64,000 bases of DNA. Origin: Candidatus Fervidifonticultor quartus (GTDB taxonomy: Bacteria; Sysuimicrobiota; Sysuimicrobiia; Sysuimicrobiales; Humicultoraceae). Shown here one piece after another: positions 1,122 to 46,065 of this stretch. The stretch covers positions 42,233-106,232 of the forward strand of contig JAVKJV010000002.1 in NCBI GenBank assembly GCA_031458775.1, read 5' to 3'. The notes under the pieces were generated by a model. The model was not told the origin of the DNA. It saw only the letters and a list, made by a program, of their open reading frames with translations, and searched no databases. The first letter of the stretch is position 1. Each line of letters begins with the position of its first letter. The translations under genes were made by a program, and so were the position numbers.

Positions 1122-4503
<3,382 letters not shown>

Positions 4504-4514
4504 GCGCGCGCGCC

Positions 4515-5042
4515 ATGAGTCTCGAACCGACGGTCGCATCGAGGGCGATCTACCGCGGTCGCGTGGCGACGCTCCGCGTGGATGACGTGCGTATGCCGAG
4601 CGGCCGCATCGAGCGCCGCGAGATCGTCGAGCACCCGGGCGCCGCGGCCGTCGTGCCGGTGACCGACGACCACGAGGTTGTGATGGTCCGGCAGTATCGC
4701 AAGGCGGTGGAGAGCGCACTCCTTGAGATTCCGGCCGGGACGCTCAACGCCGGCGAGACCGCGCTTGCCTGCGCGCACCGCGAACTGGCGGAAGAAACCG
4801 GGTTGGCCTGCGATGTCATGATGCCGCTGATCACCTTCGTGCCGTCGCCGGGGCTGCTGACCGAGGAGATCACGCTCTTCTTGGCCCGGGGCTTGCGGCC
4901 GGTACCCCGGATGGTACAGGCTGAGGAAGAGGGGCTGCAGGTCGTGCGCGTGCCGGTCGACCAGATTGCGCAGCTGATCAGCCGGGGGGACGTGCGGGAT
5001 TCGAAGACCATCATCGGGTTGATGCTCCTCTCGTGGCGGTGA
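4515..5042 (+). CDS. nudF: NUDIX hydrolase, ADP-ribose pyrophosphatase-like
   Basis: Nudix box GTLNAGETALACAHRELAEETG. N-terminal beta region YRGRVATLRVDDVRMPSG is typical of ADPRase. Start set at ATG 4515 (MSLEPTV...). Confidence 0.8.
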   Translation: MSLEPTVASRAIYRGRVATLRVDDVRMPSGRIERREIVEHPGAAAVVPVTDDHEVVMVRQYRKAVESALLEIPAGTLNAGETALACAHRELAEETGLACDVMMPLITFVPSPGLLTEEITLFLARGLRPVPRMVQAEEEGLQVVRVPVDQIAQLISRGDVRDSKTIIGLMLLSWR

Positions 5043-7291: not shown

Positions 7292-8116
7292 ATGAGCTGG
7301 GCATTGCGCGCTCGTGAGGCCGCCACCGCGATCCGCCAGCGGACCCGCCGCGTGCCTGATGCGGCGGTGATTCTCGGATCAGGGCTGGGGGCGCTGGCAG
7401 ACCAGGTGACCGTGGACGCCGCATTGACGTTTCAAGAGATTCCGCACTTCCCGCGGACCAGCGTGGAGGGGCACCACGGCCGGCTCCTGATCGGCACGCT
7501 CGAGGACCGGGCTGTGGCCGTGATGCAGGGTCGGGCCCACTTCTACGAGGGATACGCGATGGCGGAGGTGGCGTTTCCCGTTCGTGTGCTGCATGCGCTG
7601 GGCGCGCCGATCTTGATTGTCACCAACTCGTCCGGCGGACTGAACCGGCACTTCAAGGCGGGCGACCTCATGGTCATCGCCGACCACATCAACTTCATGG
7701 GCACGAATCCGCTCGTCGGGCCTAACGAAGACGAATTGGGGCCCCGGTTCCCGGACATGTCCGAGCCCTACGACCCCGCGCTCATCGAGCTGGCCGAGGC
7801 CGCGGCGCTGGAGGTCGGCATTCCGCTGCGCAAGGGCGTCTACGTCGGCGTCTGCGGCCCGTCGTACGAGACCCCAGCAGAACTGCGCATGATGGCGCGC
7901 TGGGGCGCGGACGCGGTGGGGATGTCCACCGTGCACGAGGTGATCACCGCGCGGCACGCCGGCATGCGCGTGCTGGGCCTGTCGGCGATCACGGACATGG
8001 CGACCGGTGAGGGCCACGGCAAGGTCACCCACGAGGACGTGCTGGCAGCCGCCAAGCGGATTGAGCCGCAGTTCGTGCGACTCGTGCGCCGCATCGTGCG
8101 AGGGCTGCCGCGATGA
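7292..8116 (+). CDS. punA: Purine nucleoside phosphorylase (trimeric PNP-I type)
   Basis: ILGSGLGALAD, HFPRTSVEGHHGRLLIG, GMSTVHEVITARHAGMRVLGLSAITD. ATG 7292 follows GAGAGGGGAG RBS-like purines. The 5' part of track ORF 6725-8116 overlaps deoB out of frame. Confidence 0.92.
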   Translation: MSWALRAREAATAIRQRTRRVPDAAVILGSGLGALADQVTVDAALTFQEIPHFPRTSVEGHHGRLLIGTLEDRAVAVMQGRAHFYEGYAMAEVAFPVRVLHALGAPILIVTNSSGGLNRHFKAGDLMVIADHINFMGTNPLVGPNEDELGPRFPDMSEPYDPALIELAEAAALEVGIPLRKGVYVGVCGPSYETPAELRMMARWGADAVGMSTVHEVITARHAGMRVLGLSAITDMATGEGHGKVTHEDVLAAAKRIEPQFVRLVRRIVRGLPR

Positions 8117-8156
8117 ACCGCCAGCCCCTCACGGCGACGCGAGCCAGACGGGATTC

Positions 8157-9503
8157 GTGATCCGGCCAGCCGAGCTCATCCAGAAGAAGCGTGACGGCGG
8201 GGCGCTGTCGGGCGAGGAGATTGGCACGCTCGTCCGCGGGTTTGTTGCCGGCGACATTCCCGACTATCAGATGGCCGCGTTCCTGATGGCGGTCTTCTTC
8301 CGCGGGCTCAGCGCCGATGAGACCTCGGCGTTGACGCAGGCGATGGTGCGGTCGGGCGAGGTGCTCGACCTCGGGCCGCTGGCGGGCCGAGCCGTGGACA
8401 AGCACAGCAGCGGCGGCGTGGGCGACAAGACCTCCCTCGTGCTCGTCCCCCTGGTGGCGTCGGCCGGCGTGCCGGTGCCGAAGCTCTCGGGCCGCGGGCT
8501 TGGACACACCGGCGGCACGCTCGACAAACTGGAGTCGATTCCAGGATTCCGCACCAATCTGACGACGGCCGAATTCATCGAGCAGGTTGGCCGCGTCGGA
8601 TGCGCGATTGCCGGGCAGAGCGCGTCCATCGTGCCCGCGGATGCGAAGCTCTACGCCCTGCGCGATGTGACCGCCACGGTTGAGAGCATTCCGCTGATCG
8701 CGGCCAGCATCATGTCGAAGAAGCTCGCAGCCGGCGCCGGGGCCATCTTGCTCGACGTCAAGTGCGGCCGGGGCGCGTTCATGAAGACCGAGGACGCCGC
8801 CCGTGAGTTGGCGCAGACGATGGTGGAGATCGGCCGGACGGCCGGCCGCCGTGTGGCGGCCGCGATCACCGGCATGGACGTACCCCTGGGCCGGGCCGTG
8901 GGCAATGCGCTCGAGGTGGCCGAGGCCATCGCCACGCTGCGGGGCGAGGGTCCGCCCGACCTCCACGCGCTGTGCCTGGACCTGGGTGGCTGGATGCTCG
9001 TGCTCGGTGGGCGTGCCGCAACGCCTGGCGAGGGACGGGTCGAGGTCGAGCGCCGGCTCCGTTCGGGCGATGGGCTGGCGCGGCTGGCAGCGATGATCGA
9101 AGCGCAGGATGGCGATGCGGGCGTGATCGAACATCCGGAGCGTCTTCCGCGGGCATCGGTGCAGGTGGTCGTGCCGTCGCCCGGCGCCGGCGTGATTGCC
9201 GCGATCGACGCCGCCGGCATCGGGCTGGCCGCGATGCGCCTGGGCGCCGGCCGGATCAGGAAGGGCGACCCGGTGGACTCGGCGGCGGGCGTGGTGCTGA
9301 TCCGCGTAGTGGGTGAGGCGGTGCGCGCCGGGGATCCGATTGCCGTGGTGCACGCGCCGGATCCCACCAGAGCGGACGCGGCGGTCCGCGAGGTGGCGGC
9401 CGCGTATGCGATCGGCGAGCACGCGCCGCCACAGCGACCGCTGATCCGGACCGTCGTGCAGGAGGCGGATCACGGCCGTGCGGCCGGCGGCGGGTCGGGG
9501 TGA
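8157..9503 (+). CDS. pdp: Pyrimidine-nucleoside (thymidine) phosphorylase
   Basis: DKHSSGGVGDKTSLVL and SGRGLGHTGGTLDKLESIPG motifs. Start placed at in-frame GTG 8157 (VIRPAELIQKKRDG...). Start uncertain. Confidence 0.9.
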   Translation: MIRPAELIQKKRDGGALSGEEIGTLVRGFVAGDIPDYQMAAFLMAVFFRGLSADETSALTQAMVRSGEVLDLGPLAGRAVDKHSSGGVGDKTSLVLVPLVASAGVPVPKLSGRGLGHTGGTLDKLESIPGFRTNLTTAEFIEQVGRVGCAIAGQSASIVPADAKLYALRDVTATVESIPLIAASIMSKKLAAGAGAILLDVKCGRGAFMKTEDAARELAQTMVEIGRTAGRRVAAAITGMDVPLGRAVGNALEVAEAIATLRGEGPPDLHALCLDLGGWMLVLGGRAATPGEGRVEVERRLRSGDGLARLAAMIEAQDGDAGVIEHPERLPRASVQVVVPSPGAGVIAAIDAAGIGLAAMRLGAGRIRKGDPVDSAAGVVLIRVVGEAVRAGDPIAVVHAPDPTRADAAVREVAAAYAIGEHAPPQRPLIRTVVQEADHGRAAGGGSG

Positions 9504-9532
9504 TGCGGCGGGATGATCAGGAGGCGACAACG

Positions 9533-10381
9533 ATGATTCGTCGTGTGGGAGTCGTGGGGTGCGGGCTGATGGGCTCGGGTATCGTCGAGGTCGCCGCGCG
9601 GTGCGGCTACGAGGTCGTCGTGCGCGAGGTGACGCCGGTGTTGCTGGAGCGCGGACTCGACCGCATCGACGCGTCGATGCAGCGGGCGGTCGACCGCGGG
9701 AAGTTGGAGGCCGCAGCCCGAGAGGCCGCGCGGAGCCGCATTCGAGGGACGACCTCGCTGACCGATGTGGGCAACTGCGATCTCGTCATCGAGGCCGTCG
9801 TGGAGAAGATGGACGAGAAGAAGGCGGTGCTGCGCGAGCTCGACGGGCTGCTGAGGCCGGAGGTGATCATGGCCAGCAACACGTCGTCGCTCTCGATCAC
9901 GGAGATGGCCGCGGTCACGGCGCGGCCGGAGCGAGTGGTGGGACTACACTTCTTCAATCCCGTGCCGGTCATGGCCCTGGTCGAGATCGTGCGTGGCCTG
10001 CAGACGTCGGAGGCGACCGTGCAGACGGTACGCGCGTTCGCGCAGTCGCTCGGCAAGACCGTCGTCATGGCCAAAGACGCGCCCGGGTTCATTGTGAACC
10101 GGCTGCTCATCCCGTATCTCCTCGATGCGATCCGCGTGCTGGAACTCGGCGTGGCGTCGCGCGAGGACATCGATACCGCCATCACGTTGGGACTCGGACA
10201 TCCGATGGGGCCGCTGACGCTGATGGACTTTGTGGGACTCGACACCACGTACTACATTGCGGAGGCGATGTTTCAGGAGTTCAAGGACGATCGCTACGCG
10301 CCGCCGCCGTTGCTGAAACAGATGGTGCTGGCGGGCTGGCACGGCCGGAAGAGCGGCCGGGGGTTCTACGAGTACGGATAG
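9533..10381 (+). CDS. hbd: 3-hydroxybutyryl-CoA (3-hydroxyacyl-CoA) dehydrogenase
   Basis: Rossmann VGVVGCGLMGSGIVEV, VGLHFFNPVPVM, PGFIVNRLL. AGGAGG RBS 9518-9523 before ATG 9533. Confidence 0.9.
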   Translation: MIRRVGVVGCGLMGSGIVEVAARCGYEVVVREVTPVLLERGLDRIDASMQRAVDRGKLEAAAREAARSRIRGTTSLTDVGNCDLVIEAVVEKMDEKKAVLRELDGLLRPEVIMASNTSSLSITEMAAVTARPERVVGLHFFNPVPVMALVEIVRGLQTSEATVQTVRAFAQSLGKTVVMAKDAPGFIVNRLLIPYLLDAIRVLELGVASREDIDTAITLGLGHPMGPLTLMDFVGLDTTYYIAEAMFQEFKDDRYAPPPLLKQMVLAGWHGRKSGRGFYEYG

Positions 10382-10394
10382 TCGGGGGTGCATC

Positions 10395-12125
10395 ATGTGG
10401 GCTGTCGTTCGCCGGGTCACCCTGCTGGCGTTGGGCGGGGCGTGGATTGCGGCCCCGTTGGCCGCGGCGCCGATCCCGGGAGTTCCCAACCCGAAGGTGG
10501 CCGTCGAGGCGCCGGAGATCGGCCGATACGGCGGCACGCTGGTGGTCGCGCAGGTGAGCGAGCCCCGTACCTTTAACCCCGTCATCTACACCGACACGTC
10601 CACGGGCGCGGTGCTCGCGCCCATCTTCGACGCGCTCGTCGAGGTGAACTACCTGACCGGCGAGATGGAGCCGTCGCTCGCGGCGTCGTGGACGCTCAGC
10701 CCTGACCGGCGGACGTGGACCTTCGTGCTCCGCGAGGGCGTGCAGTGGTCGGACGGCCGGCCACTCAACATGGACGACGTGGTGTTCAGCCTGGAGACCG
10801 TGTTCACGCCCGGCGTGCAGAGCACGACGCGCGACCTGCTGATGTTTGACGGCAAGCCGCTCCGGTGGCGCCGGCTGGATGCGCGCCGGATCGCGTTCAG
10901 CACCGAGCAGCCCGCGGGCTTCTTCCTGCGTCAGATCAGCGGCCTCACCGTCATTCCACAGCACAAGCTGTCGGCCGCGCTGGCCAGGGGCGGGCAGGCG
11001 TTCAACACGACCTGGGGCGTCAACACCCCGCCCAACGAGATCGTCGGCACCGGGCCGTTCGTGATGCAGATGTACGCGTTCGGCCAGCGCGTGACGTACG
11101 CCCGCAACCCACGCTACTGGCACGCCGACCGTGCGGGCCAACGGCTGCCGTACCTCGACCGCTACGTGCTGCTGTTCGTGCCGAACCTCGATGCCGAGAA
11201 GCTCAAATTCCTGGCCAAAGAGACCGACCTCTATGGCGCGCGGCCGCGCGAGTACGCCGAGTTCAAGGCCGGTGAAGCCGCCGGCAACTACACGGTCTAC
11301 GACGGTCCGGAGACCTTTGCGTCGCAGTACCTGGTCTTCAACCAGAACCCGCGCGGGCTCGCGCCGCCGAAGCTCACCTGGTTTCAGGACGTGCGGTTTC
11401 GCCGCGCGCTGAATCACGCGATCGACCGGCAGGCCATCGTCCGGCAGGTCTACGCCGACCGAGCCACGCCGTCGTGGAGCCCGGTCAGCATCGCCGATGC
11501 ACGCTACCACAACCCCAACGTCCGGAAGTACCCTTACGATCTCAAACGCGCACAAGATCAACTGGCCGAGGCCGGCTTCACGAAGGACGCCGCCGGCCGG
11601 CTGCGCGACGGCCAGGGCCATGCCGTGGAGTTCGAGCTCTCGACCGTGGCGCAGAACGCCGATGCGGTGGCGATCGGCAATATCGTCCGGCAGGATTTCG
11701 AGCGGCTCGGTATCAAGGTCACGTTCACGCCCGAGCCGTTCGCCACCCTGGTGACCAAGCTCGACAATACGTTCAAGTGGGACGCCATCATCATCGGCCT
11801 GACGGGTGACAACGAACCCGGGACCGGCCGCACCTATTGGATGAGCTCGGGTGCGCTGCACGATTGGAATCCGCGACAGCCGAAGCCGACGACCGCGTGG
11901 GAGGCCGAGATCGACCGCATCTTCGAGCAGGTCGCGCGGGAGACCGACGTGGCCAAGCGGCGTGCGCTCTACTGGCGCTGGCAGGAGATCGTCGCCGATC
12001 AGGTGCCGGTCATGTACTTCACGAACCCCAAGACCCAGCCGGTCGTGCGCAACACGCTGGGCAACACGCGTCTCGGGTTGCAGGGTCAGACGAGCCGGCT
12101 GGACTGGCGGTACTATCGGCGCTAG
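10395..12125 (+). CDS. ABC transporter substrate-binding protein, family 5 (peptide/nickel/opine type), secreted
   Basis: N-terminal signal-like MWAVVRRVTLLALGGAWIAAPLAAAP. 576 aa, with conserved family-5 blocks (WSDGRPLNMDDVVFS, RNPRYW, YLVFNQ, FRRALNHAIDRQAIV). No permease or ATPase genes adjacent. Confidence 0.8.
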   Translation: MWAVVRRVTLLALGGAWIAAPLAAAPIPGVPNPKVAVEAPEIGRYGGTLVVAQVSEPRTFNPVIYTDTSTGAVLAPIFDALVEVNYLTGEMEPSLAASWTLSPDRRTWTFVLREGVQWSDGRPLNMDDVVFSLETVFTPGVQSTTRDLLMFDGKPLRWRRLDARRIAFSTEQPAGFFLRQISGLTVIPQHKLSAALARGGQAFNTTWGVNTPPNEIVGTGPFVMQMYAFGQRVTYARNPRYWHADRAGQRLPYLDRYVLLFVPNLDAEKLKFLAKETDLYGARPREYAEFKAGEAAGNYTVYDGPETFASQYLVFNQNPRGLAPPKLTWFQDVRFRRALNHAIDRQAIVRQVYADRATPSWSPVSIADARYHNPNVRKYPYDLKRAQDQLAEAGFTKDAAGRLRDGQGHAVEFELSTVAQNADAVAIGNIVRQDFERLGIKVTFTPEPFATLVTKLDNTFKWDAIIIGLTGDNEPGTGRTYWMSSGALHDWNPRQPKPTTAWEAEIDRIFEQVARETDVAKRRALYWRWQEIVADQVPVMYFTNPKTQPVVRNTLGNTRLGLQGQTSRLDWRYYRR

Positions 12126-41814: not shown

Positions 41815-43209
41815 ATGCCGCGTGAACCCATGCCCGATCTCGTCGTGCTCCTTCCCGGCATCTGCGGCAGCGCGCTGCGCAAGGACGGTCGCGATCTGTG
41901 GGCGATCTCCGGGGACGCGGCGAGCCGCCTGCTCTTCAGCCTGGGCCGCAGCCTCGGCGACCTGAGGCTCACCGACGACCCGGCGGACGTCGACGATCTC
42001 GGCGACGGCATCACTGCCGACCGGCTGATCGCCGACCTGCACCTCATCCCCTATCTGTGGAAGATCGACGGGTACACGAAGGTGGCCGACACACTCAAAG
42101 CGACCTTCGAGGTCACTCCCGGCCGCAACTATTTCGAGTTTCCCTACGACTGGCGTCGTGACAACCGCGTGGCGGCCCGCCGCCTCCAACGGGAGAGCCG
42201 ACGATGGCTCGCCGACTGGCGACAGTCGTCCGGGAACGCGGACGCCAAGCTGATCCTCATCGGCCACTCGATGGGCGGCGTCGTGTCCCGATACTTCCTC
42301 GAATGTCTGGACGGCTGGCGCGAATGCCGGGCGCTCGTGACCTTCGGCACACCGTACCTGGGGGCCCTCAACGCCCTCGACTTCCTCGCGAACGGGATGC
42401 GCAAAGGCCCGGCCGGCGTCGTTGACCTTTCGGGTCTCATCCGTTCGCTGACGTCCGTCTACCAGTTGCTGCCGGTCTACGACTGCTATGATCCTGGCGA
42501 CGGGACGCTGGTGACGGTCGGCAAGACCACGGGCGTCCCCAACGTGGATGCCGGTCGCGCCGCGGCCGCCTACGCGTTCCACCGCGAGATCGCCGACGCG
42601 GTCGCGCGGCACCGGCAGGACGACGAGTACGTCCGCCAGGGGTACAAGATCTTCCCCATCGTGGGGACGCACCAGCCGACGCAGCAGTCGGCGCGCCGGA
42701 CGGCAACCGGCGTCGAGATGGCGCAGGCCCTGGCCGGCCGCGACGACGGCGGTGACGGCACGGTGCCGCGGGTCTCGGCCACGCCGGTCGAACTGCAACA
42801 GTTGGGCCGTGAGATGTACGCGGCGACGCGCCACGCGTCCCTCCAGAACGCCGACGCGGTGCTGGCGCAACTGCACGGTGTCATCACGGGACTGTCCCTG
42901 TCGGTCCCGAAACCGTTCCCGGTGCGGCTCGACGTGGTCCGGCTCGGCCTCGACCTCGACGACGCCTACTGGACCGACGAGCCGGTCGAGGCGCGCGTGC
43001 GCGGCCGCGCCGGCGAGGATGTGGTCGTGACCGTCAGCAGCGCAGCCACCGGCGCCCAGGTGGCCGCGCGGCCGATTGCCCTTCAGGATGCCCCGTGGAC
43101 TCCTGCGCCATTCAGTCCCCTGCCCGCCGGAACATATCGCATCACGGTCTCCGGGCATGAACGTGTCGAGCCCGTGGCCGACATCTTTGCGGTCTTCGAA
43201 CATCGCTAG
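41815..43209 (+). CDS. LCAT/PGAP1-like alpha/beta-hydrolase (lipase/acyltransferase) with C-terminal beta-rich domain
   Basis: Nucleophile elbow LILIGHSMGGVVSRYF (Ser152), GGDGTVP (Asp314), TRHASLQN (His340). FEFPYDWRRDN is the LCAT-family YDWR block. About 100-aa C-terminal beta-strand-like region (RITVSG..., VVVTVSS...). AGGAG RBS 10 nt before ATG 41815. Confidence 0.75.
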   Translation: MPREPMPDLVVLLPGICGSALRKDGRDLWAISGDAASRLLFSLGRSLGDLRLTDDPADVDDLGDGITADRLIADLHLIPYLWKIDGYTKVADTLKATFEVTPGRNYFEFPYDWRRDNRVAARRLQRESRRWLADWRQSSGNADAKLILIGHSMGGVVSRYFLECLDGWRECRALVTFGTPYLGALNALDFLANGMRKGPAGVVDLSGLIRSLTSVYQLLPVYDCYDPGDGTLVTVGKTTGVPNVDAGRAAAAYAFHREIADAVARHRQDDEYVRQGYKIFPIVGTHQPTQQSARRTATGVEMAQALAGRDDGGDGTVPRVSATPVELQQLGREMYAATRHASLQNADAVLAQLHGVITGLSLSVPKPFPVRLDVVRLGLDLDDAYWTDEPVEARVRGRAGEDVVVTVSSAATGAQVAARPIALQDAPWTPAPFSPLPAGTYRITVSGHERVEPVADIFAVFEHR

Positions 43210-43259
43210 CCGCGCGACCCCGCCGATGCGGGGGATTCCGAGATCTGGAGGCGGGCCAC

Positions 43260-44057
43260 ATGGCATGTCGGGAGAGTTCTATCGATTTTCTGCGGGGCTT
43301 GGGATATACGCCCATCCAGTTGCCGCGTGAACGCATTCACCCGCTCGACCTGGTGGGGAAACTGGCGGGCGGCGGCCGCGCGAAGCAACTGGGTTCACTC
43401 ACCAAGCTCGTCGTCGGCGCGGTGCCGGCACCCGAGATTGCCCGTGACGAGCAGGTCGGACAGGTGAGCGGCAAGCGGACCGACAAGCTCGATATCGGGA
43501 TCGGGCTCAATCTGCTTTCGAAGTTCTTCTCGGCGCTTGGGGTCTTCTCGGCCTCGATCAGCGCCGCGTTTGCGCGGGCCAAGCAGGTCGAGTTTCAATA
43601 CGAGAACGTGACCTCCGATTCGGTGGACATCGTCGACCTGCGCGGCTATCTGGGGAAGCGGCCGTCCCTGGACCCGAACAACCCGGTGGTGGACGATTAC
43701 TTCATCGGCGACGGCCAGGTGGTGGTGATCACGCGAACGCTCAAGTCCACCGGGTTCGGCGTGTTGGCGTCCGACGAGAGGGGCAACAAGGTGGACATCG
43801 ACGTCGACGTTCTCAAAGAGGATCTGGCCAAGGCCGGAGTGGATGCCGCCAGGGGCTCAGAGATGAAGGTATCGTTCAAGGGCACCAAGCCGCTCGTCTT
43901 TGCCTTTCAGGGACTGATGCTGCGCATCGACACCGGCGGATTACGGGTGAGCGACGATGTGCCCGCGGAGCTGGGCATCTTCGCGTCCAGGCCGGCTGCT
44001 GCCGGTGAGGCCGCCCCGGTGGTGCTCACGCGGAACGGGCTGCTGCGGCTCGACTGA
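43260..44057 (+). CDS. Bacterial gasdermin (bGSDM)-like pore-forming protein
   Basis: 265 aa with no TM helix or signal peptide. Starts MAC (Cys3). IDFLRGLGYTPIQLPRERIHPLDLV, KRTDKLDIGIGLNLLSKFFSALG, VEFQYENVTSDSVDIVDLRGYL, VVVITRTLKSTGFGVLASDERGNKVDIDVDV and KVSFKGTKPLVFAFQGLMLRID follow the bGSDM block pattern as I recall it. Short about 30-aa C-terminal tail. GGAGG RBS 8 nt upstream. Protease gene immediately downstream. Confidence 0.72.
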   Translation: MACRESSIDFLRGLGYTPIQLPRERIHPLDLVGKLAGGGRAKQLGSLTKLVVGAVPAPEIARDEQVGQVSGKRTDKLDIGIGLNLLSKFFSALGVFSASISAAFARAKQVEFQYENVTSDSVDIVDLRGYLGKRPSLDPNNPVVDDYFIGDGQVVVITRTLKSTGFGVLASDERGNKVDIDVDVLKEDLAKAGVDAARGSEMKVSFKGTKPLVFAFQGLMLRIDTGGLRVSDDVPAELGIFASRPAAAGEAAPVVLTRNGLLRLD

Positions 44058-44093
44058 TCAGGCGCCGGCGCACACAGAGAGGGAGACCGGGCG

Positions 44094-45491
44094 ATGGAGT
44101 TCATATCCACGAACGGCATCGACCTGCGCACCGGGCGGCCGGTGTTTCACCGGGTGCCGTTCCAGGAGTTCCTGCAGGTCTTCCACAACCGGCTGCCGGC
44201 GCCGCGCGAAGACGAGGAGCGGCGCCGTGCCACGACGAGCGCGCTGAGCACCACGCGCAGTATCTTCGCGGCCACGACGAACCTCAACGATCCCGTCGCG
44301 GCCGGCTACGGCGTGGTCTGTGCGCCGGGCCGCGTGCCCCTGCTCGACGGGGCCCTGGCGCCGCTGCTGGCGTGGCGCCAGGTGAAACCCGAGCACCGGC
44401 TTGTCCTTGACATCGCCCAAGTGGGGATCGGCGGGTTATCGGACTGGATGGACGAACACATCACGTTTCGCGACGGGCCGTACTACTGGTTGCTTGTGGG
44501 CGGTCCGGCCGAGCTGCCCTTTGACCTTCAGTGGATGCTGGATGCGGGCAAGGCCGCGGGCCGTATTGAGTTCGACGATGAGGCTGAGTACGCGGCGTAC
44601 GCGGAGCGTGTGATCCGGGCCGAGCAGGTGCTCGCCGCGTCACACGGGGCACCGCCGGTGTTCTTCTGGTCGACCCTCCACGACGACGTCACCAGGCTGA
44701 GCAACTGGTACATGTGCACGCCGCTGGTGAAGCGGCTGGAGAGCCACGGCGTCAACGTGACCTATCGCGAGAAGGCCGACGCTACGGTGGACGCGTTCTG
44801 GAGTGCGGCCAGGGCGTGGGGGACGCGCGGCGGGCTCGTCTACACGGCCAGTCACGGTGGCATGCTGCCGAACGACGACGCCGAGCAGCCTGCGCGTCAG
44901 GGTGCGCTCGTGGCCATGGACGGCACGATCGAGGGTCAGCAGGTCGATCGGGAGCGGTCGGCGTTCCCGCACTCGGTCGTGTTCAACTTCGCTTGCTACT
45001 CGGGAGGGACGCCCTCGCACAGCGACTTCAATCACTGGGTTCCCGAGTACCACCTGGGCCGGTACATTCCGCAGACGGCATTCGTCTCGCGGCTGCACCG
45101 GCGGTGGGTCGCGCACCCGGCCGGCCCGCTGGCCGCGGTGGGCCACGTCGAGCCGGCGTGGCTCCACTCGTTTGCGAATCCGGACAATCCGGACGACGTC
45201 ATGTTCGACGCCGCGCTGGACACCGAGTGGGGGGAGCGTATCCAACCGTTCCGTACCTTCACCGACCGGCTGGTAAGGGGGTATACCGTCGGCTACGCGA
45301 TGGAACTGTTCGGGTTTCTCTATGATCAACTGGGGAATGACATCGCCCGGCGCATCAACCGGTACCTGCGCGACAACCCGGGCGGCGCGGTGAACGAACA
45401 GGAGTTGCGCAAGATGGCGACGCGCTGGATCAGCCGCAACGACTATCAGAACTACGTGGTCTTCGGCGATCCGGCGGTGCGCATCGCGTGA
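44094..45491 (+). CDS. Clan CD cysteine protease (caspase/gingipain C25-like), probable gasdermin-activating protease
   Basis: His-Cys dyad in caspase-like spacing: LVYTASHGG (His254, CAC 44853-44855) and VVFNFACYSGG (Cys301, TGC 44994-44996). C25-like blocks PYYWLLVGGPAELPF and C-terminal NYVVFGDPAVRI. AGGGAG RBS before ATG 44094. No NACHT, TPR, WD40 or LRR-like repeats visible. Confidence 0.7.
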   Translation: MEFISTNGIDLRTGRPVFHRVPFQEFLQVFHNRLPAPREDEERRRATTSALSTTRSIFAATTNLNDPVAAGYGVVCAPGRVPLLDGALAPLLAWRQVKPEHRLVLDIAQVGIGGLSDWMDEHITFRDGPYYWLLVGGPAELPFDLQWMLDAGKAAGRIEFDDEAEYAAYAERVIRAEQVLAASHGAPPVFFWSTLHDDVTRLSNWYMCTPLVKRLESHGVNVTYREKADATVDAFWSAARAWGTRGGLVYTASHGGMLPNDDAEQPARQGALVAMDGTIEGQQVDRERSAFPHSVVFNFACYSGGTPSHSDFNHWVPEYHLGRYIPQTAFVSRLHRRWVAHPAGPLAAVGHVEPAWLHSFANPDNPDDVMFDAALDTEWGERIQPFRTFTDRLVRGYTVGYAMELFGFLYDQLGNDIARRINRYLRDNPGGAVNEQELRKMATRWISRNDYQNYVVFGDPAVRIA

Positions 45492-45582
45492 ACGACGCGG
45501 CCCGGCGACGGCAGGGGATGGCCGGACGGCCAGGAAACGTTGTGGCGGTGACGCAGCGCTGAGCACGCCGACGATCCGCATC

Positions 45583-46065
45583 GTGAGGGCCAACCTTGAC
45601 GATCCGGCCCATCAGCAAGCCGTGCTTGCGATGGTCAACGCGTATGCCCGGGATCCTATGGGCCAGGGCCGCGATCTGCCCGAGACGGTGCAGCGCGACC
45701 TCGTGCCCGGGCTGCGCCGGCATCCGACAACGCTGATCTTTCTCGCCTACGACGGTGAGCGGCCGATCGGCGTCGCCGTCTGCTTCGTGGGGTTCTCGAC
45801 GTTCGCCGCCAGGCCGCTTGTCAACATCCACGATCTGTCGGTTGTTGCCGGCTACCGCGGGCAAGGGGTGGGTCGCCGGTTACTGGAGCGCGTCGAGTCC
45901 GCAGCGCGCGAGTTGGGCTGCGCGAAGATCACGCTCGAGGTGAATGCGGACAACGTCGGCGCGCAGCACCTCTATCGCCGGTTCGGGTTCCGCGGTGGCG
46001 GGTCCGGTGACGACCTCAACCGGGTGTGGTTCCTCCAGAAGCGGCTGACGCCCGCCGGGTCGTGA
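45583..46065 (+). CDS. GNAT-family N-acetyltransferase
   Basis: Acetyl-CoA motif VVAGYRGQGVGRRLLERVESAARELGCAKITLEV...NVGAQHLYRRFGF. Confidence 0.82.
   Translation: MRANLDDPAHQQAVLAMVNAYARDPMGQGRDLPETVQRDLVPGLRRHPTTLIFLAYDGERPIGVAVCFVGFSTFAARPLVNIHDLSVVAGYRGQGVGRRLLERVESAARELGCAKITLEVNADNVGAQHLYRRFGFRGGGSGDDLNRVWFLQKRLTPAGS

Follow-up and report, generated by a model that had tools for sequence, protein, structure and literature searches.

Bacteria have their own counterpart of pyroptosis in gasdermin-protease pairs, and to our knowledge the cue that fires the protease is the main open question about them, answered only for the CARD/NLR-type system of Lysobacter. Here, we analysed a stretch of 64,000 nucleotides from Candidatus Fervidifonticultor quartus (contig JAVKJV010000002.1, positions 42,233 to 106,232 of the forward strand; hereafter the window, in which all positions are counted), which carries a lipase gene, a gasdermin gene and a protease gene in this order on one strand, with gaps of 50 and 36 bp. 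The protease, predicted to be gingipain-like, is the main subject of this study, and we call its family C25-like (C25L). The cassette comprises the following features:

41815..43209, + strand: LCAT/LPLA2-like phospholipase of 464 amino acids (aa), with the triad Ser152/Asp314/His340 and a C-terminal beta-sandwich (from Pfam, AlphaFold2 and Foldseek)
43260..44057, + strand: bacterial gasdermin (bGSDM) of 265 aa (from PADLOC, NCBIfam and alignment with PDB 7n51)
43977-44054, + strand: predicted gasdermin C-terminal inhibitory peptide, about residues 240-265 (from the 7n51 alignment and conservation)
44094..45491, + strand: C25L protease, predicted clan CD, gingipain (C25)-like cysteine protease (from the open reading frame, PADLOC, AlphaFold2 and Foldseek)
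44094..44288, + strand: protease residues 1-65, a beta-hairpin and two helices (from DSSP, alignment and a profile model)
44289..44648, + strand: protease residues 66-185, N-terminal alpha/beta subdomain with the PYYWLLVGGP block (from AlphaFold2 and alignment)
44649..45488, + strand: protease residues 186-465, caspase-like catalytic subdomain with the His254/Cys301 dyad (from AlphaFold2 strands, invariance and a weak C25 match)

Each of the three genes has its own Shine-Dalgarno-like motif (AGGGAG, 8 nt 5' of the start, for the protease), and no terminator-like site was found in the cassette before 46090, i.e., until after the downstream GNAT gene, which a 91-bp spacer separates from the protease. 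The GC content of positions 42001-46000 is 0.668-0.678, versus ~0.70 in the flanks.

The protease open reading frame (ORF) starts with ATG, ends with TGA and encodes 465 aa. The initial annotation of this DNA, made from its letters without database searches, had proposed a His254 (ASHGG) and Cys301 (FACYSGG) dyad spaced by 47 residues, and this dyad was recovered at the exact positions: the two motifs start at residues 252 and 299, and the verified codons occupy 44853-44855 and 44994-44996. An alignment of 63 homologues, with identities down to 27%, shows no variation at H254, G255 or C301, and this conservation of the dyad and its motifs is far above the chance level; residue D197 is near-invariant among the homologues. 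The protease also contains PYYWLLVGGPAELPF from residue 129 and VVFGDPAVRI from residue 455, and the two blocks quoted by the initial annotation are the best-conserved parts of the family.

The AlphaFold2 model of the full protein, a check that had been suggested beforehand, was built from the 63-sequence alignment and proved confident, with a predicted local distance difference test score (pLDDT) of 91.8 and a predicted template modelling score of 0.92, no segment below pLDDT 50 and values above 70 almost throughout. When it was compared with the Protein Data Bank (PDB) by Foldseek, the top match was gingipain K (Kgp; 4rbm, 4e-8, 472 aligned columns, probability 1.00), followed by gingipain R (RgpB; 4ief, 1.5e-7, probability 1.00), and then by separase (5fby) and the Craspase TPR-CHAT protein (8d9f), each with probability 1.00, and human separase (9hms, 0.99); no viral structural relative was found at E <= 1e-3. 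The alignments with the gingipains span nearly the whole length at 10-12% sequence identity. In the model, His254 (TASH254GG) follows strand E248-252 and Cys301 (NFAC301) follows strand E295-299, so that His and then Cys each end a hydrophobic beta-strand, with Gly after His, which is the arrangement of clan CD. Because the fold, the order of the residues and their invariance agree, the modelled structure places the protease in clan CD as a gingipain-like enzyme, in agreement with the clan proposed from the sequence alone.

With Kgp and RgpB (MEROPS family C25, clan CD), the window protease thus shares a near full-length structural alignment, the His-then-Cys dyad after beta-strands and, judging from the model, a catalytic body of two subdomains. 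The spacing of the dyad is about 33 residues in gingipains, versus 47 here. In contrast to these secreted enzymes, the window protease appears cytoplasmic: its N-terminus (MEFISTNGIDLRTGRPVF) is non-hydrophobic and devoid of a signal peptide, its C-terminus (VVFGDPAVRIA) comes directly after the catalytic subdomain, and it has no prodomain, no Ig-like domain, no C-terminal domain of the type IX secretion system and no extra Pfam domain. We therefore considered whether an ordinary secreted or housekeeping C25 peptidase might stand beside the gasdermin by chance, as its closest solved folds, the secreted gingipains, might suggest; with none of the secretion features present, a conserved pairing with the gasdermin, and a wider family that stands amid CHAT/STAND/TPR proteins and is fused to nuclease or lipase domains, such a coincidence is scarcely credible.

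At the level of family models, the protease gave no match at E <= 0.1 to Pfam CHAT (PF12770) or C14 (PF00656), and a CHAT hidden Markov model (HMM) built from neighbouring genes scored it weakly (1.6e-7). Membership of the PCaspases was considered and rejected, since PCaspase is a Pfam C14 protein with H79/C146 as its dyad. In PADLOC, the 'chat' model PDLC02988 (455 positions) matches residues 3-423 of the protease at 3.6e-34, and it matches the window protease clade (E 1e-23 to 4e-44) and neither the distant C25L proteins nor true CHATs, i.e., the label 'chat' is the name of a narrow model of this clade. The gasdermin-linked proteases of the clade are therefore already catalogued. Note that the Vitiosangium bGSDM locus was tried as the source of PDLC02988 and rejected, as its 769-aa CHAT partner does not match the model.

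The initial annotation had also stressed that the protease carries no fused sensor domain, and indeed the Pfam scan gave neither a repeat domain nor an NTPase domain. It further regarded ~120 N-terminal residues as unassigned and as a possible seat of the trigger, a view that the family data do not sustain. DSSP places two strands and two helices in residues 1-65 (E2-6, E8-10, H23-33 and H41-61), the hairpin has the family consensus FNGIDxxTGxYL with nearly invariant G8 and G14, and this segment is present in 196/218 C25L members (the profile HMM aligns from position <= 15). Residues 66-185 alternate strands (E72-76, E102-104, E131-135 and E154-158) and helices, with G71, L91, R95, G156, R157 and Y169 invariant, and judging from the model this stretch, from about residue 66, would be the counterpart of the N-terminal subdomain in the catalytic domain of gingipains. 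Three HMMs, built from residues 1-65, 66-128 and 1-128, matched only C25L ORFs in ~170 loci, never a neighbouring protein. Thus, the N-terminus is an integral part of the enzyme and not a variable sensor, and the whole 465 aa form one protease body without a sensor in cis. A hidden adaptor or sensor of the CARD or EAD type was rejected on the same two grounds, i.e., presence throughout the family and absence from the neighbouring proteins. The comparison with Lysobacter is instructive here, as an unannotated N-terminal region of ~100 aa mattered on the gasdermin protease of that system (Wein et al., PMC10312443). There, the protease is of the trypsin type and the region is a CARD-like, alpha-helical adaptor that the NLR-like ATPase partner carries as well, whereas the N-terminus of the window protease consists of the hairpin, two helices and the alpha/beta subdomain and is unique to C25L. 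It could still be regulatory.

The neighbouring ORF 43260..44057 is, on sequence grounds, unambiguously a bacterial gasdermin. It matches PADLOC bGSDM at 1.5e-65 and NCBIfam prok_gasdermin at 3e-55 (187 bits versus a cut-off of 100), and its residues 3-264 align with the Vitiosangium bGSDM (7n51, 6e-39), the closest solved relative, whose C-terminal peptide is matched by the tail up to residue 264. The relatives all keep Cys3, which is palmitoylated in the solved bGSDMs (bioRxiv 10.1101/2021.06.07.447441). The tail shows a variable linker followed by a conserved PVVLxRxGLLxL(D/E), with R258 nearly invariant; the candidate cut sites are the linker after GIFAS, or R258 with D197 of the protease as the S1 residue, and we make no claim for either.

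Johnson et al. (2022) described systems in which the bGSDM is activated by an adjacent protease (bioRxiv 10.1101/2021.06.07.447441), that of Runella zeae being a Roc-COR-CHAT protein. The statement of the initial annotation that bGSDM proteases are 'usually' linked to repeat or NTPase modules was too broad, as Johnson et al. (bioRxiv 10.1101/2021.06.07.447441) write only that 'some' of them carry repeats or NACHT domains. Among known systems, the window locus comes closest to these bGSDM-protease pairs (PADLOC gasdermin models PDLC02986 and PDLC02988), and PDLC02988 fits the protease nearly end to end. Unlike the proteases of Johnson et al., however, the window protease has no Roc-COR, TPR, LRR, WD40 or NACHT domain and is gingipain-like rather than Pfam CHAT or C14, and unlike their systems, the cassette includes a phospholipase gene, the text of Johnson et al. 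mentioning no lipases or hydrolases.

The association of protease and gasdermin proposed for this locus extends to every close relative. With a protease identity of at least 60% as the limit, we compared eight related cassettes, among which a metagenome scan for further cassettes contributed a single one (L174):

window, L001/L159: lipase, gasdermin, C25L
L153, L160: lipase, gasdermin, C25L and a convergent 383-aa CHAT
L174: gasdermin, C25L and a convergent CHAT; left end cut
L166-168: a 1,009-aa LCAT-DUF7363-CHAT fusion, then gasdermin and C25L; different flanking genes
L169-170: C-terminus of a CHAT, gasdermin, C25L
L164: gasdermin and C25L only; same chromosomal site after RibD_C

In all eight cassettes, the gasdermin gene is followed directly by the C25L gene, the two being at most 36 bp apart and in some cassettes having stop and start codons that abut or overlap, and in L164 the pair has neither lipase nor CHAT. 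The gasdermin-C25L pair is thus the invariant core, and the lipase and the CHAT-type second protease are optional accessories. Both core genes are under purifying selection, with dN/dS (nonsynonymous to synonymous substitution rates) of ~0.25 in the protease and ~0.15 in the gasdermin, with or without a CHAT in the locus, values that are approximate with dS near saturation.

Several further observations concern the layout of these cassettes. The convergent CHAT genes lie at 9455-10606 (-) in L153, 5380-5766 (-) in L160 and 2091-3380 (-) in L174, encode repeat-less proteins of 383 aa and occupy the site where the window has just the 91-bp spacer. The LCAT-DUF7363-CHAT fusion (1865-4894 (+) in L166; also in L167 and L168) stands directly 5' of the gasdermin, with amidase and amidohydrolase genes in the flanks. 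Cassette content at the chromosomal site after RibD_C varies in related genomes. The 301-aa protein P0016 on a 7-kb Logan contig is a chimera joining lipase residues ~128-253 to protease residues ~304-463, apparently what remains of the cassette after a deletion that took out the gasdermin. The P0356 contig (JGI 3300047160, 9.7 kb) shows the order LCAT lipase, 393-aa protein, 63-aa protein and gasdermin, with IS21 IstB and Mu transposase fragments at the expected protease site.

Our preferred reading, to which we give a probability of about 55%, is that the C25L protease is the cognate activator of the gasdermin, that the phospholipase is a second effector and that activation is intrinsic to the protease. 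In this scheme, the cytoplasmic C25L enzyme, once active, would cut off the C-terminal inhibitory peptide of the gasdermin (~20-25 residues) and might also cleave the lipase; the freed gasdermin, probably palmitoylated at Cys3, would oligomerise into membrane pores and the cell would die, presumably as an abortive-infection response by analogy with other systems, the LPLA2/LCAT-like phospholipase acting as a second membrane-attacking effector and not as a sensor. If gasdermin and C25L form a self-sufficient core with lipase and CHAT as options, activation would probably be intrinsic to the protease, through proximity, dimerisation or an infection cue that relieves an intramolecular block.

The effector role given to the lipase rests on its own family. 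The lipase matches Pfam LCAT (6e-14), and its AlphaFold2 model (pLDDT 85) is closest to lysosomal phospholipase A2 (LPLA2; 4x97, 3.6e-13), followed by LCAT (5txf) and Tle4, a phospholipase of the type VI secretion system (4r1d, 1e-9). It shares with LPLA2, LCAT and Tle4 the fold (E 3.6e-13 to 1e-9) and a Ser-Asp-His triad, here Ser152/Asp314/His340 and invariant among the relatives; unlike them, it has no secretion context, its partners are clan CD proteases and its C-terminus adds a further beta-sandwich. The family is very large (> 4,500 matches). Its neighbours were identified by targeted HMM searches, raw clustering of six-frame ORFs being swamped by high-GC shadow ORFs: among 65 lipase-family loci of the Genome Taxonomy Database (GTDB), a CHAT is fused to the lipase in 2 and lies within 300 bp in 34 (36/65 together), and C25L is adjacent in 2 more. 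These CHAT partners are ~750 aa long with N-terminal TCAD7, DUF7363 or TPR regions. Lipase-CHAT fusions were seen in L088, L096 and L166, the last type reading as a Rosetta-stone link between lipase and CHAT protease, and in one protein (P0231) the LCAT domain is fused to C25L itself; our literature search on LCAT-CHAT pairs found no relevant report. Since members of the family are usually fused or adjacent to a CHAT, the lipase has the look of a protease-associated effector and not of a sensor.

The initial annotation had named the lipase as a possible trigger in trans, and one may indeed imagine a sensor or regulator that, for example, responds to a phage product or to disturbed membranes or lipids by licensing the protease: the gene is immediately upstream on the same strand in 4/8 cassettes, the LCAT fusions with CHAT and with C25L point to a physical partnership, and an invariant, poorly modelled loop could be a binding surface. 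This loop comprises residues 74-87 (window 42034-42075, DLHLIPYLWKIDGY), with D74, H76, P79 and W82-Y87 invariant and with low model confidence (pLDDT ~58-61 for the block, < 50 for residues 76-82), and may serve to bind membranes or a partner; the model is likewise disordered in the linker (residues 363-371) that leads into the C-terminal beta-sandwich. However, L164 keeps the gasdermin-C25L pair without any lipase, the invariant triad and a phospholipase fold that includes the toxin Tle4 fit an enzymatic effector, and in the lipase-CHAT pairs the candidate sensing regions (TCAD7, DUF7363 or TPR) belong to the CHAT protein. In fusions, moreover, the position next to C25L is otherwise taken by a nuclease effector, as Endonuclease_NS occupies in four C25L proteins the C-terminal position equivalent to that of LCAT in P0231. 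A sensing lipase is thus very unlikely, and on the sequence and fusion evidence the lipase is more probably a second, protease-associated effector.

A precedent for such an arrangement is the LcCaspase/LcHydrolase system, in which proteolysis licenses an alpha/beta-hydrolase zymogen as death effector (Evans et al. 2025, PMC12642450). Both systems have a caspase-like protease gene adjoining a lipase-like alpha/beta-hydrolase gene, and the window lipase belongs to a hydrolase family that recurrently adjoins, or is fused to, a caspase-like protease. As compared through the text of that paper, LcHydrolase (~33 kDa from summed fragments, with two cuts between R and G) differs from the window lipase (464 aa, an estimated ~50 kDa, with a C-terminal beta-sandwich), is apparently a smaller and different protein, and no R-G pair was seen on reading the sequence of the window lipase.

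Beyond its close relatives, the protease belongs to a wide family. Its profile recovers 4,824 clusters at E <= 1e-3, of which 2,670 remain at E <= 1e-30, 69 homologues were found through word indexing, GTDB contains at least 473 C25L loci, and the C25L clusters (at 50% identity) span Chloroflexota, Myxococcota, Acidobacteriota, Cyanobacteria, Actinomycetota and Armatimonadota. Within the paper library searched, we found no description of the family and, in a literature search on gingipain-like or C25 proteases in phage defence, no relevant report. Among 218 members examined for architecture, 44 consist of the core only (400-500 aa), as does the window protease, so that the stand-alone form is ordinary in C25L; 82 others carry an unannotated C-terminal extension of ~150 aa, and the rest are tandem cores or fusions. 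Some proteins have 2-4 tandem protease cores, which is consistent with activation by dimerisation, and the fusion partners are Endonuclease_NS, Trypsin_2, HEAT repeats and LCAT; such variants were seen in P0190-P0199, the P0200 class, P0243, P0260, P0280, P0290, P0320 and P0231.

A number of observations weigh against our reading. The structural resemblance to gingipains is limited, with Foldseek TM-scores of just 0.45-0.52, and no PDB match was found at the sequence level by phmmer or profile search. The Pfam C25 match (PF01364) stays below threshold (13.7 versus 23 bits; E 0.036) and covers only the C-terminal residues 334-463; note that the homologues P0243 (30 bits) and P0260 (27.6 bits) exceed the threshold and that many homologues have a precomputed PF01364 assignment. 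The flanking genes are metabolic or housekeeping (FAD_oxidored, RibD_C and GNAT by Pfam, others from the ORF list), and the cassette therefore does not appear to lie in a defence island. In addition, gasdermins 56-63% identical to that of the window occur in other Armatimonadota (L161, L162, L163, L171 and L172) without a protease within 7-8 kb. Across 80 wider-family GTDB loci, a gasdermin is detectable in a single one (the close relative L001), and giant CHAT/STAND/TPR proteins are present in half or more. The initial annotation had raised the prospect that the homologues could be secreted housekeeping proteases unlinked to gasdermins; the lack of a gasdermin link is thus borne out for the wider family, and the housekeeping role is not, since these homologues sit with CHAT/STAND/TPR proteins. 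Finally, a CHAT protease is present in 5/8 sister cassettes (L153, L160, L174, L166 and L169), and together with the giants of the wider loci this is a hint that a further protease, one with a sensor, may usually be required.

These last observations would be explained by a two-tier cascade, with C25L as the executioner zymogen and, above it, an initiator CHAT that has a sensing or adaptor region (TCAD7, DUF7363, TPR or STAND) and cleaves or assembles C25L. The window would then have lost its CHAT partner, and its cassette would either rely on a CHAT encoded beyond the 64 kb or have been orphaned recently and now be silent. The CHATs of the five cassettes, which are convergent 383-aa proteins (L153, L160 and L174), fused to the lipase (L166-168) or 5' of the gasdermin (L169-170), agree with such a cascade. 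So do the neighbours of distant stand-alone C25L genes: L154, L156, L158 and many of L002-L080 adjoin either a TPR-CHAT gene (1,023-1,111 aa) or a CHAT-nSTAND1-FGE-sulfatase gene (1,415 aa), and some of the stop and start codons overlap. FGE-sulfatase and CLec domains on STAND proteins have been discussed as diversified antigen sensors (bioRxiv 10.1101/2023.09.22.558884). CHAT-type ORFs are adjacent to C25L in 17/80 loci and within 10 kb in 49/80, counts that are raw and without background control, which lessens their weight. A precedent exists in the type III-B CRISPR system of Haliangium, where SAVED-CHAT cleaves and activates PCaspase (bioRxiv 10.1101/2023.06.23.546230). That system (Steens et al.) has two clan CD proteases per locus, the CHAT being a sensor-linked initiator for the other, and the CHAT plus C25L loci resemble it; however, PCaspase is a C14 protein, the window has no CHAT gene and a C25L cascade is hypothetical.

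Against the cascade, the window, L001 and L164 have no CHAT within 7-20 kb, and the loci without CHAT keep intact ORFs, the catalytic residues and the same dN/dS as the loci with CHAT. No exposed, conserved loop suited to cleavage was seen in C25L, the modelled chain being confident almost throughout. Within the 64-kb window, no CHAT protease and no second clan CD or C25L protease was found among ORFs of at least 80 aa, and a CHAT partner elsewhere in it was also discarded, as tblastn with five CHATs and an HMM from a 4-round jackhmmer search matched only the focal ORF, and weakly. We regard the cascade as the main rival to our reading, though rather unlikely for this locus.

The gasdermins without a nearby protease also bear on the possibility that C25L is itself the main effector, promiscuous in the manner of PCaspase, or acts mainly on the lipase, with the gasdermin either left unprocessed or cut by a different enzyme. 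This possibility would fit with most wider-family loci, which have no obvious separate effector beside C25L, and with the Vitiosangium relative of the window gasdermin, whose partner is a 769-aa CHAT protein and not a C25L. It is a long shot given the strict gasdermin-C25L adjacency in 8/8 close cassettes and the match of a PADLOC gasdermin-system protease model to the window clade. With regard to these related gasdermins, the genes downstream of that in L162 encode a metallophosphoesterase and a guanylate-cyclase-STAND-TPR protein. At the Vitiosangium locus (L173, Vitiosangium sp. GDMCC 1.1324, contig12, 8001-11147), the 7n51 bGSDM is followed by the 769-aa protein, which has a C-terminal CHAT after an unannotated N-terminal region of ~550 aa, and glycine-betaine ABC transporter genes lie upstream.

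For the C25L family as a whole, we tentatively suggest, with the odds against it, that these proteases may be executioners of bacterial conflict systems, normally placed below CHAT-TPR, CHAT-STAND or FGE-sulfatase sensors in two tiers resembling a caspase cascade and driving effectors that can replace one another (a gasdermin, an LPLA2-like phospholipase or a non-specific endonuclease). If this were true, the window would represent a stripped-down form, in which a single executioner without a sensor controls both a pore-former and a phospholipase, each directed at the membrane.

Altogether, since a PADLOC model already covers its clade, the window locus is a variant of the known gasdermin-protease system and not a new kind. 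Its gasdermin and sensor-less 465-aa protease make up a minimal two-gene core under purifying selection and a tractable model for intrinsic activation, for which the cassette variants with and without phospholipase, and with and without CHAT, provide natural genetic comparisons of one-tier and two-tier activation. If the lipase is a second effector licensed by the protease, the cassette would count as a dual-effector system, with a pore alongside a phospholipase; otherwise, it would be another member of a catalogued defence type. The locus also ties gasdermin systems to a very large, unstudied gingipain-like family and to a large family of LPLA2-like lipases partnered with CHAT.

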